From Candidatus Latescibacterota bacterium (GTDB lineage: Bacteria > Latescibacterota > UBA2968 > UBA8231): a stretch of DNA of 64,000 nt. This document shows, in pieces, positions 41,203 through 47,363 of the stretch. Below the pieces are notes generated by a model. It saw only the letters and a program-made list of their open reading frames with translations, did no database searches and was not told where the DNA came from. How positions within the stretch are numbered: the first letter of the stretch is position 1; the number at the start of each line of letters is the position of its first letter. The stretch covers positions 1,664,001 through 1,728,000 of the forward strand of contig CBDETY010000003.1 of the NCBI GenBank assembly GCA_965243025.1. The letters are read 5' to 3'. Both the position numbers and the translations under genes were made by a program.

Positions 41203-43017
41203 ATGAGTCCCAACATATACAGACTGTCGGAGAACGTAATCGGCAAGATCGCCGCGGGGGAGGTGATCGAAAGGCCGGCTTCGGCAGTCAAGGAGCTGGT
41301 CGAGAACTCTCTCGATGCGGGAGCGAAACGCATCAACGTCGACACAGCCGCCGGGGGCCGGCAGCTGATCCGGGTCGCCGACGACGGAATCGGAATGACA
41401 GCTGAAGATGCCTGCCTGTCGGTCGAACGCCACGCCACCAGCAAGATGCGCAGTCCCAGCGACCTGTTCACAATCGACACACTTGGATTTCGAGGCGAAG
41501 CCCTGGCGAGCATCGCCGCGGTTTCCCGGCTGACCATCGAAACCTCCAACGGGGAACAAGGGGAAGGTACCCGGATCGAGGTGGAAGGGGGGGTGCGCAC
41601 CTGTCTCGGCTCAATCGCCAGGGATACCGGGACTACAGTGACTGCACGGAGCCTGTTCTTCAACACCCCGGCGCGCAGGAAATTCCTCCGGCACATGGAC
41701 ACCGAAGCCCGGTACATTACCCGGTGCGTCGCCCAGTTGGCCGTCGCCTATTCCGAGGTAGCGTTCCGTGTGACCCACAACGACCGCGTGACACTCGACC
41801 TGCACCCGGGAGACCGTGCGCAACGCGTCTCCGATGTGGTTTCGGTCGATCCCTCGCTCCTGCTGCACGCAGCCTCCAGAGTCGAGGCCGGAGCAGCTGG
41901 CAGCATCTCAGTTGAAGTGCTGGCAGGATCCCCCCAGACATGTCAGCGCAGCCGCTCCCGGCAGTACGCGACCGTCCGCCGGCGGCCGGTGTACCATCGG
42001 AAGCTGAACTCCGCGGTTTACGGCGCCTTCGGCAGCCTGTTGCCCCATAACGCTCATCCGGTATTCGCTCTCTGGCTCGATATGGACCCCAGGACTGTCG
42101 ACGTCAACGTCCACCCAACCAAGAAAGAAGTCCATTTCTCCTCCGAAGGAGACCTCGTCAAAGCGGTGCAATCCGTTGCGCGAGAGGCACTTGAAATACC
42201 AGAGGCGAGTGGTTTCAAAGGCGCCGCCGGATTCGATTCGCCGGCGGAGAAACCGGATTACGGGAAAGCCGCCGGGACTGCCGGTCACAGCAGAGTCCTG
42301 GAAGCGCCCATGGATCCGTTCGGCACCGAGACCTCTGCAGACCTCGATCAACTGTCGCTTTCCCTGTTGCCTCCAGCCAGGCTGGAGACCTCGGGAAGTA
42401 CGGAGCAACCGCTGACGCCGCAGGAGGTTTTTCAGCTGTCATCGGCCGCCGAATCAACCCCGATGTGGCAGATTCACAACAAGTACATCGCGGCGCCGAC
42501 CTCCGACGGCATCGCCATAGTCGATCAGCACGTTGCCCACGAGCGCATCCGTTTCGAGGAAGTGCTTGAGGATCTGGAAGGGGAGCAGAGGATCTCCCAG
42601 CAGTTGCTGTTGCCTCTGACACTCGATTTGTCTCCAGTGGAGATGGTCGCATTTCAGGATGCCCGGCCCCTGTTCGAAAGAATCGGTTTTGGAGCGCGTG
42701 AATTCGGTCCGACCAGCCTGATTGTCGATTCCATCCCGAGCGAGCTCAGGAACTGGGGAGACGGCGCGGTATTTCAGGAGATCATCAGCGACCTGATCGA
42801 GGAGAACGAGACCCGTGCGACCACGCAGCAGGCCCTTGCTGCCTCGATGGCCTGCCACACTTCGATCCGGGCAGGAGACCGACTCAACCAGGAAGAGATG
42901 AGGACCCTGGTTCAGCGGCTGCTCAAAGCCCGGGAGCCTTTTTCCTGTCCCCACGGTCGGCCGATAATTATCCGGGTTCCACTCAGCCACCTCGACAGGC
43001 TGTTCGGCCGAACCTGA
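41203..43017 (+). CDS. mutL: DNA mismatch repair endonuclease MutL
   Basis: IAAGEVIERPAS.VKELVENS.DA, GFRGEAL, DVNVHPTK, DQHVAHER, ACH, CPHGRP. Confidence 0.97.
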   Translation: MSPNIYRLSENVIGKIAAGEVIERPASAVKELVENSLDAGAKRINVDTAAGGRQLIRVADDGIGMTAEDACLSVERHATSKMRSPSDLFTIDTLGFRGEALASIAAVSRLTIETSNGEQGEGTRIEVEGGVRTCLGSIARDTGTTVTARSLFFNTPARRKFLRHMDTEARYITRCVAQLAVAYSEVAFRVTHNDRVTLDLHPGDRAQRVSDVVSVDPSLLLHAASRVEAGAAGSISVEVLAGSPQTCQRSRSRQYATVRRRPVYHRKLNSAVYGAFGSLLPHNAHPVFALWLDMDPRTVDVNVHPTKKEVHFSSEGDLVKAVQSVAREALEIPEASGFKGAAGFDSPAEKPDYGKAAGTAGHSRVLEAPMDPFGTETSADLDQLSLSLLPPARLETSGSTEQPLTPQEVFQLSSAAESTPMWQIHNKYIAAPTSDGIAIVDQHVAHERIRFEEVLEDLEGEQRISQQLLLPLTLDLSPVEMVAFQDARPLFERIGFGAREFGPTSLIVDSIPSELRNWGDGAVFQEIISDLIEENETRATTQQALAASMACHTSIRAGDRLNQEEMRTLVQRLLKAREPFSCPHGRPIIIRVPLSHLDRLFGRT

Positions 43018-43061
43018 AAAACCCTAACGAGGATGGTTCTGGGGAATCGATCAACCTTGGA

Positions 43062-43089
43062 AAGTCACATAAACAACTTTATGTAAATA
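43062..43089 (+). other. dif-like (XerC/XerD) site
   Basis: AAGTCACATAA-ACAACT-TTATGTAAATA: 11-6-11 layout with CATAA/TTATG core, compare E. coli GGTGCGCATAA-TGTATA-TTATGTTAAAT; lies at the gene-strand convergence. Confidence 0.65.
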
Positions 43090-43164
43090 ACCAACCCGGA
43101 ATCAACCAGCATTTGGAGATATCCGGGGACTCCTGGGAAGAATGGTATTTTCCCGGCCGGTAAA

Positions 43165-44094
43165 TCAGGACCCGTACCGGATTCTCGCTACAGCTCCTCG
43201 TGCCGCCAGCTGCCCACGTGCATAGTGACCGGGCATTTGCGGCGAGGTCCAGCGGCCCGCAGTCTGCATTTCCGCTATCGAGGCGCCTCCCGCCGCAAGC
43301 GACTGGGCCCCGCCAACCCGCAGGGAGTGACCGGAGACCTTACCGTCGATTCCCGCGGCCGCACATCGGTGTTTGATGATGTTCCGGACGGATACCGTGC
43401 TCAAAGCCTTGCTTCCCACCCGGTCGCCGCGGAACAGGCGCCTGAACACCGGCCCGTCGTCAATTCCGGCCGCATCCATCCAGGCTTTGATCTTCCACGC
43501 AGTCGGCACCCCGAGAAACAGAACCACTCCGGATCCTTCCTGATCCGTTTTGGAGTGGTGGATCGTCAACCTCGCCGAGCCGTCGCTTTCAAAGGAGATG
43601 TCGGGTACCTGTACGCCGGCAACCTCCGAAACGCGGAGCAATCCGTCGGAAGCGACCGCCAGCAGGGCGGAGTCGCGCAAACCAGCCAGGGAATCATCCG
43701 AGGCAACCGCGGCCGCCGCATCCGCCTGGGCGAACTGGACCCCCTGCACCTGACCCCGACCGCGGTCCTTGCCCGCACGGCGAATTCCCGCCAGCACCCT
43801 GTCCGTTGCCGGACCGGCCGGGGAGGGCTCGCCCTGCATCCTTGCACGGAACTTTACCGCGGCGACTGCCTGTGAACAGGTGGCCGGAGACTTTCCTGCC
43901 ATGTGCAGTCCCGCGATATAGTCGGCAAGATACACATCTGTCAGCGGGAGGTCGCCGAGATGGCTGTCGATCTTTGCCAACGCATGCCGGTAGGCCCTGA
44001 GCGTGTTTTCCGAGACGCTGGCATGAACCAGGTCCCGGATGGCGCCGGAATTGGCGAGCTCTTGCGGAGAGTTCGCGGTGATCAGATTACCCAT
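43165..44094 (-). CDS. Cre-like tyrosine recombinase/integrase
   Basis: SENTLRAY N-terminal domain; catalytic R (LRVSE), K (SKTD), HSLR, W (GRW), Y (HYAR); GHSLRVGGA resembles Cre GHSARVGAA. Confidence 0.93.
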   Translation of the reverse strand: MGNLITANSPQELANSGAIRDLVHASVSENTLRAYRHALAKIDSHLGDLPLTDVYLADYIAGLHMAGKSPATCSQAVAAVKFRARMQGEPSPAGPATDRVLAGIRRAGKDRGRGQVQGVQFAQADAAAAVASDDSLAGLRDSALLAVASDGLLRVSEVAGVQVPDISFESDGSARLTIHHSKTDQEGSGVVLFLGVPTAWKIKAWMDAAGIDDGPVFRRLFRGDRVGSKALSTVSVRNIIKHRCAAAGIDGKVSGHSLRVGGAQSLAAGGASIAEMQTAGRWTSPQMPGHYARGQLAARGAVARIRYGS

Positions 44095-44099
44095 GCCAT

Positions 44100-44149
44100 C
44101 CTGGTTGATTAGTTTTGATAACGTGAATTATACAAACTAATAATCCAGG
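44100..44149. repeat. imperfect palindrome, lox/dif-like recombinase core site
   Basis: ATTAGTTTTGATAA (44108-21) - CGTGAA - TTATACAAACTAAT (44128-41), 12/14 complementary, outer CCTGG/CCAGG. Confidence 0.75.
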
Positions 44150-44155
44150 CGTCAA
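44127..44155 (-). promoter_or_regulatory. near-consensus sigma70 promoter of the recombinase
   Basis: TTGACG (rc 44150-55) - 17 bp - TATAAT (rc 44127-32), 32 bp upstream of the ATG. Confidence 0.75.
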
Positions 44156-44384
44156 CGCGGGGGGTTTCCCGGCTTGTGGTTTGTTGGAAAACACCGTCGC
44201 TTCGGGACTCCTTTTCGGATCTGGAATATTACTTTTGATAATTACTTTCGGAATTTGTTATCGCCGTTGATGTCCTGTGCGAATCAACTCCTGACCAGCC
44301 CCGGGTTCCAATCCTTGGTTTGAGCTGCCCTGGGGGCGGACATGCCAATAACCTCGATATTTACAAAATGAAATTTACATGGCA

Positions 44385-47363
44385 TCAGACCACTATATTG
44401 ACGATCCTCCCCGGGACATACACAAACCGCTTGGGTACGGCCGAATCCGGAAGGTACCGGCGAACGTTGTCCAGTTTCAGAATCAGATCCCTCGCTGTTT
44501 CTTCGGTGATTCCAGCCGGAACTTCAACACTGGCCCTTACCTTGCCGTTGACCTGCACGGGCAGGGTCAACGTATCCTCGACCAGCAGATCTTCCTGTGG
44601 TTGCGGCCAATCCTGGACCGACAAATCCCCGTCGCCGAAACCCCAGATGCTCCACACCTCCTCTCCAAGGTGCGGGGCAAACGGCGACAGCATCAAAACC
44701 AGAGATCGCGCCATCTCCTCGGAAACAGCCTCTTTCCCCACCAGGTCGTTATTCAGCTCGATCAGCGCCGCGATGGCTGTGTTGAGCCGCAATCCCTCGA
44801 TATCCTCGGTCACCTTGGCCATTGTCCGGTGGAGCTTCCTGCGCAGAGCGACATCCTCCTCATCCTTTCCCGGAGCCATCCTCCTCGCCGTTCCATCCTG
44901 GGAAACCAGGTTGCGCCACACGCGCTGCAGGAAACGCTGCATCCCGCGTATTCCCTCCATGCTCCACGGCGTGCTCTGCTCGAGGGGGCCCATGTACATC
45001 TCGTACAGGCGCAGGGTGTCGACCCCGTACTCCTCCCCGACTTCTTCGGGAGGCAGCCCGTTCTTGTAGCGTTTCCCCATCTTGCCGCCGGAACGGGTCA
45101 GCGCCTCACCGGTCTGCGAGTGGAAAGGCCGCCCGTCGCGCAGCTCGACCTCGCGGATGTCGACGTAGACTCCGCGGGCATCCGTGAACGCATCGGCGGT
45201 TATCATTCCCTGGTTGAACAGTTTCTTGAACGGCTCGGGTGAAGAGACGTGGCCCAGGTCGAACAACGCCTTGTGCCAGAACCGGGAATACAACAGGTGG
45301 AGCACGCCGTGCTCGGCGCCGCCGATATACAGATCGACCGGCATGAAATGCCGCTCCCTGGCAGGGTCGCAGAATGCCTGGGTGTTGGCTGGATCGATGA
45401 AACGCACGAAATACCAGCAGGACCCCGCCCACTGGGGCATGACGTTCAGTTCCCGCTCGCACTGGGTTCCATCCATGCTGACGAACCGCCAATCGTCCGC
45501 GGCGCGTCCCAGCGGCAGCGAAACCGGAGTGTCGGGATCATCGGAGGTCTGCGGACGGAAGTCCTCCATCTCGGGAAGCAGGACGGGAACCTCGGTAGCG
45601 ACTGAAAAGCCGTCCGGAGTGGTGGCCAGCGGGAAGGGCTCTCCCCAGTATCTTTGCCTGGAAAAAATCCAGTCGCGCAGCTTGTAGCGGACCGCAAACC
45701 TTCCAAGGCCGGCCCTTTCCAGTGCGGAAGTGATTTTTTCCCTGGCCTGTTGCGTCCCCAGGCCGGTGATGGAGAACTCGCTGTCTCCATCGGCGGGAGA
45801 ATTGATGCTGGTCCCCTCCCCTGTGAAGCAACCCCCCTCTTCGGTTCTGTCGCTGTCCGGCGCCTGGACGACCTGGATCACCTCCAGGCCGTAGTTTGAG
45901 GCAAACTCGAAATCGCGGTCGTCGTGCCCGGGAACCGCCATGATCGCCCCCGTCCCGTATTCCATCGAAACGTAGTCGGCGACAAAAACCGGAATGACAG
46001 CTCCGCTGGCAGGGTTGCGGGCCCATATTCCAGTGAAAACCCCCGACTTCTCGCGCTCGTCGAATTCCCTTGCGACCTGAGTGGCTTCCGCTGCCGCGGC
46101 GACATAGTCCGCGACCGCTACCCGAGGTCCTGAGATGGTTCCCTTTTTCCAGACCTCTTTCGTGCCTTCGGGCCAGCGTGCCGGCACGAGATACGAGGAG
46201 TGTTCCGGATCGAGAAGCCGGTGCCCGGGAGCGACCGCCATGAAGGTCGCTCCGAACAGGGTGTCGGGACGCGTGGTGAAAACTTCGAGGCGCGCGGCGA
46301 TTTCCGTGGAACCCGGTTTCAGCAGGTCGAACAGGATTTCCGCCCCCCCGCTGCGGCCGATCCAGTTCCGCTGCATCAGCTTGATCGGTTCGGGCCAATC
46401 CAGTGCGTATCTGCCTCCGCGTCCGTCTGGCAGATCCGCTGAATCCAGATCCTGCAACAGGCGGTCGGCGTAGTCGGTAATGCGAAGCATCCACTGCCTG
46501 AGCGGGCGCCTGTACACAGGAAAATCGCCGATCTCGCTGCGGCCTTCTCCGGTGACCTCCTCGTTGGCCAGGACCGTTCCCAGCCCGGGACACCAGTTGA
46601 CCGTTACTTCTTTCTGATATGCCAGCCGATAGTTGTTGAGCACGGCAGCCCGCCCGGCCTCGGTCAGTTCGTACCAACCGGGGTTCGAACCGCTCCCGTT
46701 CTGCCTTCGCGAAATTGAGGCAAGGGTTTCGAGATCGCCGTCTGAAAGGGCACGACGTCCACGGATAAAAGCCTCTTCCAGCTCCCGGATCGGCACGGCC
46801 TTGCCCTTGATCTCGCGACCTGCCGCATCGAACTGAATAGCTTCCGGATCGAACCAGCAGTCGTAGAGCTGCAGAAAAATCCACTGGGTCCAGCGGTAAT
46901 ACTCTGCGTCCGAAGTCGCCAGCTCCCGATCCCAGTCGTAGGCCAGGCCCAGGACCTGAAGCTGTCCGCGCATGCGGTCGATACACTCGCGTACCGCCGT
47001 GGACGGATGCACGTTGTTTGCGATCGCGTACTGTTCCGCCGGCAGGCCGAAGCTGTCGAACCCCATCGGATGCAGAACGTTGAATCCCCGCATCCTCTTG
47101 AAACGGCTGTAGATGTCGCTGGCGATATAACCCTTGGGATGGCCTATGTGGAGCCCGTCGCCGCTGGGATACGGAAACATGTCGAGGACATAGCACTTTG
47201 GCCGGGTATCGGTCGTGCGGTCTTCCCCGGGACCTTGCGTCCTGAACGTCTTCTCCCCCAGCCAGCGTTCGCGCCAGCGGCGTTCTATCTCCTGGTACTG
47301 GTAACTTCCCCTCTTCATCTTTTTTTGTCCGTCAAGTTCCAGTCCGCCGGTACGTGGACTCAC
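44385..47363 (-). CDS. leuS: leucine--tRNA ligase (long form; start uncertain)
   Basis: LDMFPYPSG.GLHIGH, VFTTRPDTLFG, SRQRYWGEP, MPQWAGSCWY, KMGKR, VQVNGKVR. Confidence 0.96.
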   Translation of the reverse strand: MSPRTGGLELDGQKKMKRGSYQYQEIERRWRERWLGEKTFRTQGPGEDRTTDTRPKCYVLDMFPYPSGDGLHIGHPKGYIASDIYSRFKRMRGFNVLHPMGFDSFGLPAEQYAIANNVHPSTAVRECIDRMRGQLQVLGLAYDWDRELATSDAEYYRWTQWIFLQLYDCWFDPEAIQFDAAGREIKGKAVPIRELEEAFIRGRRALSDGDLETLASISRRQNGSGSNPGWYELTEAGRAAVLNNYRLAYQKEVTVNWCPGLGTVLANEEVTGEGRSEIGDFPVYRRPLRQWMLRITDYADRLLQDLDSADLPDGRGGRYALDWPEPIKLMQRNWIGRSGGAEILFDLLKPGSTEIAARLEVFTTRPDTLFGATFMAVAPGHRLLDPEHSSYLVPARWPEGTKEVWKKGTISGPRVAVADYVAAAAEATQVAREFDEREKSGVFTGIWARNPASGAVIPVFVADYVSMEYGTGAIMAVPGHDDRDFEFASNYGLEVIQVVQAPDSDRTEEGGCFTGEGTSINSPADGDSEFSITGLGTQQAREKITSALERAGLGRFAVRYKLRDWIFSRQRYWGEPFPLATTPDGFSVATEVPVLLPEMEDFRPQTSDDPDTPVSLPLGRAADDWRFVSMDGTQCERELNVMPQWAGSCWYFVRFIDPANTQAFCDPARERHFMPVDLYIGGAEHGVLHLLYSRFWHKALFDLGHVSSPEPFKKLFNQGMITADAFTDARGVYVDIREVELRDGRPFHSQTGEALTRSGGKMGKRYKNGLPPEEVGEEYGVDTLRLYEMYMGPLEQSTPWSMEGIRGMQRFLQRVWRNLVSQDGTARRMAPGKDEEDVALRRKLHRTMAKVTEDIEGLRLNTAIAALIELNNDLVGKEAVSEEMARSLVLMLSPFAPHLGEEVWSIWGFGDGDLSVQDWPQPQEDLLVEDTLTLPVQVNGKVRASVEVPAGITEETARDLILKLDNVRRYLPDSAVPKRFVYVPGRIVNIVV

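Follow-up and report, generated by a model that had tools for sequence, protein, structure and literature searches.

Introduction

Nearly all bacteria with circular chromosomes resolve chromosome dimers, and to our knowledge the recombinases known to carry this out all belong to the Xer family (XerCD, XerS, XerH, XerA and XerL). Here we describe a locus of an uncultured, sponge-associated bacterium of the Candidatus Latescibacterota, in which a gene for a Cre-like tyrosine recombinase lies between mutL and leuS. The locus is part of a 64,000-nucleotide stretch of DNA, referred to as the window (positions 1664001-1728000 of contig C3 of the source genome, G000); positions are those of the window unless a contig is named. 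Besides the recombinase gene, the mutL-leuS gap contains two dif-like sites, L and R, and one lox-like site, P, all within positions 43062-44385. From its sequence, the locus can best be viewed as a terminus module of the "dif-xer-dif" type, family-wide in distribution, in which a Cre-type gene with its own lox-like site has taken the place of the original recombinase gene.

For single-recombinase Xer systems it is described that the gene is located next to its site, which is a possible hallmark of such systems (PMC1914069, PMC5357621), and lineage-specific Xer systems such as XerL continue to be discovered (PMC9765430). The site of Cre, loxP, is described as 34 bp long with 13-bp inverted arms and an 8-bp spacer, and the catalytic hexad of the enzyme as R173, K201, H289, R292, W315 and Y324; native sites of Cre-type enzymes were previously found by searching up to 1 kb from the gene (PMC10250229). 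In the ter region of E. coli, Cre-loxP is reported to substitute for XerCD-dif (Leslie and Sherratt 1995, as cited in PMC2680272). Integrative mobile elements exploiting Xer (IMEX) are described as using the dif site and the Xer proteins of the host (PMC5357621).

The gene between mutL and leuS encodes a Cre-type recombinase

The open reading frame (ORF) at 43165..44094 on the minus strand encodes a tyrosine recombinase of 309 amino acids (aa). It is the sole long ORF between L and R, in line with the initial annotation of the window, which had described one recombinase without cargo. The protein matches the Pfam family Phage_integrase (E 1.4e-12), and the closest solved structure is Cre (E 2.6e-21, residues 56-305), with XerD reaching just 8.9e-4. 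The XerD, XerA and XerC models give it 40-45 bits, which is far below their cut-offs of 220-335 (for XerD 45 compared with 329.6). All six residues of the Cre hexad have a counterpart in the alignment, namely R154, K182, H256, R259, W282 and Y291; among 13 homologues five of them are invariant and K182 is at least 90% conserved. The intact R-K-H-R-W-Y hexad that had been read from the sequence was thus confirmed. Judged from these comparisons, the recombinase is nearer to Cre than to the Xer or integrase families over both domains. It might therefore be Xer-like in function at most, and is not a member of the Xer family.

The locus had also been described as an AT-richer island of about 1.3 kb. 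Determination of the GC content in 300-bp windows showed that this applies to the two intergenic spacers (49-55%) but not to the gene, which has a GC content of 62-69% compared with a genome mean of 65%.

L and R are inverted dif-like sites that are conserved in relatives

Site L (43062..43089, plus strand) has the 11-6-11 organization of a dif site, AAGTCACATAA-ACAACT-TTATGTAAATA, and is located 75 bp beyond the 3′ end of the Cre-like gene. Site R (44358..44385, minus strand) reads ATGCCATGTAA-ATTTCA-TTTTGTAAATA on the reverse complement and shares one base with the leuS stop codon. The arms of the two sites match at 7/11 and 10/11 positions, the sites are mutually inverted and their TTxTGTAAATA arms point inward, which confirms the two sites as annotated. 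On both strands of the 6.8-Mb genome, R is the sole match to the 22 arm positions of L with five or fewer mismatches. When the genome was scored with a weight matrix derived exclusively from 23 sites in other genera, the two best matches were L, with 37.4, and R, with 28.9, followed by a third one at 21.6. Together, the two scans rule out that L and R are chance or remnant sites.

The Cre-like gene is located between mutL and leuS in exactly four of the genomes compared: G000, its congeners G001 and G002, and G019, which belongs to another genus (g18). All four have an R-type site, and R corresponds in position and orientation to the main dif-like site in genus g3 (G020, G004). Comparison of L between G000 and G002 showed that 18 of the 22 arm positions are identical but none of the six spacer positions (binomial P 4.6e-4; the neutral expectation is about 45% identity). 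R is identical at 20 of 28 positions, as counted from the locus alignment. In G001 the left half of L is deleted and only the half-site TATGTAAAT remains.

Additional dif-like sequences were observed in two other places. In G019, two dif-like sites of opposite orientation, separated by 53 bp, are located between the Cre-like gene and leuS (L015:1257-1337), and a third one on the mutL side; this cluster may be a scar of the replacement event described below. Genus g19, which belongs to a different family of the class, has a recurring dif-like sequence with near-identical arms and the spacer AGACTG in at least seven genomes (among them L127, L128, L131, L133 and L137); it could be the dif site of this genus or a conserved stretch inside a gene.

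In relatives the locus is occupied by a family-specific Xer gene

The core CATAA-N6-TTATGT was searched in 61 relatives, all genomes compared here being metagenome assemblies and all readings resting on sequence. The sites often adjoin mutL or leuS. In G020 and G018, the 1.2-kb interval that separates the dif-like site from the more distant neighbour contains the gene for another tyrosine recombinase (314-320 aa). We refer to it as XerX, our own label for this family-specific Xer-type recombinase. XerX is a divergent Xer protein (XerC model 124 bits, XerD 118, XerA 102) and is found exactly once in 27 of the 36 family genomes. A wider sample contained it in 60 of 75 family genomes, one each (two of them split over two matches), and in none of 92 genomes from 13 other families of the phylum. 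Whenever mutL and leuS are both seen, they flank XerX, which has the direction of mutL except in G012. The 27 loci were scanned with a leave-one-locus-out matrix (threshold 18), which revealed a dif-like site beside XerX in 21 of them and an inward-facing inverted pair bracketing the gene in seven. The site mostly follows the gene at a distance of 12-150 bp from its 3′ end, and the TTATGTAAATA arm faces the gene. These bracketed loci show that the geometry seen in the window is a trait of the family; by this distribution, L and R are ancestral to the family and not the Cre-like cassette's own.

XerX was not found in the four genomes G000, G001, G002 and G019 (E 1e-30 or 1e-40); in G000 the top tblastn match of XerX is the XerD-like gene, with 25% identity. 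These are the same four genomes that carry the Cre-like gene at the locus, the proteins of the other three being 85%, 84% and 63% identical to that of the window. In all of them the gene is opposed to mutL and has a dif-like site past its 3′ end (a half-site in G001) and at least one inverted dif-like site on the leuS side. G002 and G019 are single-contig assemblies. We regard it as highly probable that XerX was exchanged in situ for a Cre-type gene that brought its own lox-like site.

In a tree of 23 sequences, the dif-locus copy of G019 is sister (100/100) to L048, a copy outside a dif locus at G167:C6. G167 belongs to the same genus as G019 and keeps XerX, and L048 has no mutL, leuS or dif-like site nearby. 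The three dif-locus copies of G000, G001 and G002 group with paralogues of their own genus (85/76). A single clade of the four dif-locus copies is rejected by the approximately unbiased (AU) test (p 1e-12). A secondary move out of the dif locus in G167 would mimic this result; two independent captures, one in the genus of the source bacterium and one in G019, would be the simpler reading of the tree.

A lox-like site overlaps the predicted promoter of the gene

A third site, which the initial annotation had missed, is located 14 bp upstream of the start codon of the Cre-like gene. Site P (44108..44141, without assigned strand) is a lox-like 13-8-13 inverted repeat, ATTAGTTTTGATA-ACGTGAAT-TATACAAACTAAT, with arms that are complementary at 11 of 13 positions. 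As a full site P is single in the genome, and the next-best full-site matches have eight mismatches in the 26 arm positions; several of them resemble sites of paralogous Cre-like copies. The counterpart of P in G019 has different arms that are again mutually complementary, thus the two arms co-vary.

Palindromes of this kind were also found at homologous genes. A survey of 90 Cre-like loci, which represent at least a dozen phyla, revealed nine with a 13-6-13 palindrome (core ATAA-N6-TTAT) up to 800 bp upstream of the gene; 50 shuffles yielded none. Such palindromes number nine in 69 kb of upstream sequence compared with three in 346 kb of gene-plus-downstream sequence, and looser criteria also detect sites upstream of the paralogues in the genus. 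In contrast, dif-like sites scoring at least 20 are found near none of the 86 other Cre-like loci, a single weak match (19.5) being present in L102. This indicates that P came with the gene and that L and R did not. P is probably both the cognate site of the Cre-like enzyme and its operator. L and R were also considered as attL/attR hybrids resulting from integration through P; this was rejected, as by eye the arms of R fit the dif-type consensus far better than they fit the arms of P.

A sigma-70-like promoter is predicted at 44127..44155 on the minus strand from its consensus match (TTGACG-17 nt-TATAAT, 11/12 matches), and its -10 box lies inside P. Two promoter-like sites were found compared with 0.4 expected in shuffles. 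An extra P-like half-site, ATTACTTTTGATA, is located at 44228..44248 (plus strand); it is identical to the left arm of P at 12 of 13 positions and is followed by a ATTACTTT repeat. The spacer that contains it is 290 bp long in G000 compared with 174 bp in G001 and 167 bp in G002.

The relationship between P and the dif-like sites bears on a different explanation, according to which the Cre-like enzyme would be the successor of XerX at L and R, acting alone or with the XerD-like protein, and P would be only an autoregulatory operator. The inner core of P, ATAA-N6-TTAT, is indeed identical to that of the dif-like sites; in addition, L and R have been maintained, and the location of L past the 3′ end of the Cre-like gene mirrors that of the main site past XerX. 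However, the outer arms of P differ from those of L and R, and between G000 and G019 the arms of P co-vary with the enzyme while the dif-like arms are unchanged. Since, moreover, L is half-deleted in G001 and we know of no precedent for a mixed Cre/Xer tetramer, this explanation appears quite improbable.

The canonical Xer homologues are present, but XerC of this genus has lost its catalytic tyrosine

Whether xerC and xerD exist in this genome had been listed as a check for the locus. Both homologues were found, but the XerC-like protein of this genus is without its catalytic tyrosine. An XerD-like gene is present in 59 and an XerC-like gene in 54 of the 61 relatives. The XerD-like protein (305 aa, encoded adjacent to uvrC; L179, G000:C3:6498532-6502446) scores 284 bits compared with the cut-off of 329.6 of the XerD model. 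It keeps the tyrosine, and its first catalytic histidine is an alanine in this genus and a glutamine in several relatives.

The XerC-like protein (380 aa, encoded adjacent to topA; L191, G000:C3:5010181-5014320) lacks the catalytic tyrosine and the second histidine throughout the genus. An alignment of the XerC-like family (L191-L222) showed that the tyrosine is missing in 17 of the 32 aligned family genomes, including G000, G001, G002 and G019, with the second histidine usually gone too. The reading frame is open and evolves at a ratio of nonsynonymous to synonymous substitution rates (dN/dS) of about 0.3, thus the protein may be a non-catalytic Xer partner. The 17 genomes comprise 12 with XerX, the four with the Cre-like gene at the locus and G013. 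In four genomes (G005, G014, G017 and G034) XerX is absent and no Cre-like gene reaches E 1e-60; XerC is intact in all of them.

The locus is located at the replichore junction

The source genome has a size of 6.8 Mb and a GC content of 65% and is assembled in three contigs. On contig C3 the cumulative GC skew has its minimum at 4.88 Mb and its maximum as a plateau at 1.662-1.702 Mb, and falls thereafter. L is located at 1,707,062 of this contig, and the span from L to R (1.7071-1.7084 Mb) lies where the cumulative skew turns, i.e., at the replichore junction. The GC skew is flat for about 40 kb to the left of the dif locus (window 1-43000; C3:1,662,000-1,702,000), so that the switch on the left side is not sharp. 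An octamer-skew scan for a polarity like that of the FtsK orienting polar sequences (KOPS) gave no strongly skewed octamer, the highest skew being 0.79.

The neighbours of the locus are mutL (41203..43017, plus strand), conserved on the left side throughout the family, and leuS (44385..47363, minus strand), conserved on the right. Both were assigned from their ORFs and from tblastn synteny with the relatives.

The Cre-like gene is under purifying selection and the locus is stable

Within the genus the Cre-like gene has a dN/dS of 0.10-0.12 at a dS of 0.6-1.0. This is on par with the flanking parts of mutL (0.12-0.15) and leuS (0.11-0.13) and lower than the values for the XerD-like (0.20-0.31) and XerC-like (0.28-0.33) genes. 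The synteny of the locus is constant in the three species of the genus, which indicates vertical inheritance under purifying selection.

Contigs from four public runs were compared with the window. Those of two runs contain the stretch identically, and these runs may be its source. A further contig, which belongs to a different study and is about 95% alike, covers 42681-44289 and thereby L, the gene and P, and a 3225-base contig of another organism has about equal spacing. No strand-changing joint and no mutL-leuS joint without insert was found in the contigs of these runs, contigs being blind to rare variants. Contig ends at L and near R in run X2 carry no weight, as this low-depth run has about seven breaks in 2.7 kb.

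These data are relevant for the possibility that the 1.3-kb segment acts as a switch that is inverted by recombination between L and R. The inverted arrangement of the sites would allow it, and XerX of G012 points away from mutL, unlike at the other loci that have both genes. On the other hand, the segment has the same orientation in all four Cre-locus genomes, and the predicted promoter and P are located inside it, hence flipping would not switch the gene. An invertible segment is therefore very improbable.

The Cre-like gene has multi-copy relatives that resemble mobile genes

G000 contains, in addition to the gene at the dif locus, a paralogue with 66% identity, a copy with a stop codon and a fragment. 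The decayed copies are L035 (C3:2266950-2270849), which is 52% identical and has an in-frame TAA, and L038/L041 (C3:6024762-6028249), a C-terminal fragment split over two frames. Seven Cre-like matches at E 1e-60 or better are present in G001, and three of its loci (L044:2340-4902, L045:2337-4901 and L046:2308-4889) have a 2.56-kb unit in common, with 98.5% and 90% identity. The unit has a Cre-like paralogue at its right end, a lox-like palindrome about 400-440 bp upstream of it and antisense ORFs in the left half; it looks like a small mobile element.

Three lox-like sites on C3 of the source genome (4250250, 5933581 and 6035320) have similar spacers (TGGTGGGT, AGATCGGT and TGATGGGT) and the right arm TAAACxAxCTAT. 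One of them is located upstream of the 66% paralogue (C3:5932173-5933081), and the three are possibly target or att sites of a paralogous element. The metagenome-assembled genomes (MAGs) with homologues are labelled Poribacteria, Dadabacteria, Nitrospinota, Acidobacteriota, Gemmatimonadota, Gammaproteobacteria and others. One sequence from a Vicinamibacterales MAG, designated chromosome 2 (OY760735.1, 23,101 bases), contains three Cre-like matches (L056, L059 and L058) 9,605 bases apart with equal identity and score (57%, E 1e-86); it resembles a concatemer, the repeated unit being a circular element of about 9.6 kb with a Cre-like gene.

A gene with such relatives might also be a selfish or neutral passenger, i.e., a mobile Cre-like gene with its lox-like site that landed between the dif-like sites and displaced XerX, without any role in segregation. 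It could have arrived through an exchange of cassettes, which has been proposed for dif modules of the Acinetobacter type, or through illegitimate recombination. Resolution of dimers at L or R would then be left to the XerD-like protein and its non-catalytic XerC-like partner. The geometry fits, as cargo between inverted XerC/D-type sites is described for dif modules (PMC12907356). The copy number in the genus, the spread over many phyla, the family motif retained by L and R and the presence of XerD-like and XerC-like genes in most relatives also agree with a passenger. However, a dN/dS of 0.10-0.12 at a dS of about 1 combined with stable synteny in three species is unexpected for one, and no donor is known, as none of the 86 other Cre-like loci has a dif-like site scoring at least 20. 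Furthermore, the loss of the tyrosine and of the second histidine from the XerC-like protein leaves the classical two-step XerCD reaction short of one catalyst. Finally, the cargo swapped in is again a tyrosine recombinase, apparently twice. We therefore consider a passenger unlikely.

Discussion

We propose that a Cre/lox-like module replaced the dif-linked Xer recombinase in situ and was domesticated to serve chromosome dimer resolution, and give this reading a probability of roughly 0.5. By analogy to Cre on loxP, the Cre-like enzyme would bind P, and the domesticated module would constitute the terminus recombination system or contribute an essential part to it. Because P is present in a single copy at the replichore junction, recombination between two copies of P, catalysed by a homotetramer of the Cre-like enzyme, could resolve a dimeric chromosome, in the way Cre acts on loxP placed at dif in E. 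coli. Dimer resolution calls for one site per chromosome; P is unique in the genome, and the dif-like sites are two. Binding of the enzyme at P might also repress its own promoter, resulting in autoregulation. XerX would have become dispensable and then been lost, the catalytic tyrosine of the XerC homologue having been lost earlier. L and R could still be read by a host protein present throughout the family, the obvious candidate being the XerD-like protein, or might also be used by the Cre-like enzyme; the crossover site could be P, L or R.

Several observations weigh against this proposal. L and R keep one motif irrespective of whether XerX or the Cre-like gene is located between them, and the conserved arms of L together with its wholly diverged spacer suggest a reader that is common to all the genomes, probably the XerD-like protein. 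Thus, Xer-type resolution that does without the Cre-like enzyme may persist. This continued conservation of L and R appears to be the main loose end and leaves room both for a passenger and for an enzyme that acts at L and R. The block containing P is conserved in G001 and G002, but the palindrome is weaker there and does not reach 10/13 in either of them. Outside this locus, members of the Cre-like family occur in several copies per genome and in many phyla, as mobile genes do. G013, in which the XerC tyrosine is absent (84% complete, 150 contigs), yielded neither XerX nor a full Cre-like gene, only C-terminal Cre-like fragments that have no mutL or leuS nearby. Of the 15 family genomes besides G000 that lack XerX, 12 are assemblies of at least 100 contigs, in which absence may reflect assembly gaps. 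As the genomes are related, they are not independent data points, and the co-distribution of XerC, XerX and the Cre-like gene can serve to check consistency but not as a statistical test. In addition, the AU test was run after a quick tree had already been seen.

The initial annotation had offered two interpretations of the locus. The first, a self-contained element that uses dif-like sites, has been weakened, as dif-like sites are missing from the other Cre-like loci; vertical inheritance and strong purifying selection at the locus likewise speak against a mobile element. The second, a domesticated single-recombinase system like XerS or XerH, fits better, but in an altered form: L and R are ancestral, the Cre-like gene took the place of XerX, and the likely cognate site is P.

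Tentatively, and with some reservation, it can be suggested from these sequences that the Cre-family/lox-like pair became the dimer-resolution system of this lineage, having displaced a dif-linked Xer twice independently. If true, this would be the first natural Cre-type functional equivalent of Xer and a natural counterpart of the dif-to-loxP experiment. The family background would be undescribed too, with a third Xer gene between inverted dif-like sites and an XerC that is catalytically dead in about half of the genomes. In a limited literature search we found neither a Cre-type recombinase at a chromosomal terminus nor an Xer gene between inverted dif sites. The locus suggests that dimer resolution can be transferred to an unrelated branch of the tyrosine recombinases by gene replacement in situ at the terminus, with the replacement gene perhaps taken from mobile Cre-like copies already present in the cell. 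The bracketed recombinase and the widespread loss of the XerC tyrosine lead to testable questions on how single-recombinase systems arise from XerCD. Furthermore, the Cre-like family contains a large number of natural Cre-type enzymes of uncultured phyla together with predicted lox-like sites, pairs that could serve as raw material for orthogonal genome-engineering tools.

Compared with known systems, the locus combines features of several. XerS/difSL of streptococci and lactococci, XerH/difH, the archaeal XerA and XerL of Legionella likewise consist of a lineage-specific single recombinase beside a terminus site, and for XerS the site is described as located immediately upstream of the gene, as is P (PMC1914069, PMC5357621). 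Unlike in these systems, the enzyme is of the Cre family, two dif-like sites flank the gene, and canonical XerC and XerD homologues coexist with it.

IMEX such as the CTX phage and the gonococcal genetic island are also foreign DNA at dif. They are flanked by directly repeated dif-like sites, whereas the sites observed here are inverted, older than the insert and flank a recombinase gene. The Acinetobacter-type (p)dif modules have in common with the locus the inverted XerC/D-type sites and the differing cargo between equivalent sites in relatives. However, the locus is located at a chromosomal terminus and not on a plasmid, and its cargo is a recombinase in both states; a copy of the Cre-like dif module in another context was not found among the 86 other Cre-like loci.

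With Cre/loxP of phage P1 the locus has in common the enzyme family, the hexad and a 34-bp 13-8-13 site close to the gene, which is a predicted one here. It differs from Cre/loxP in that the gene is a natural chromosomal one, flanked by housekeeping genes in a window that shows no phage or plasmid context, is inherited vertically across the genus, and has a site that overlaps its own predicted promoter.

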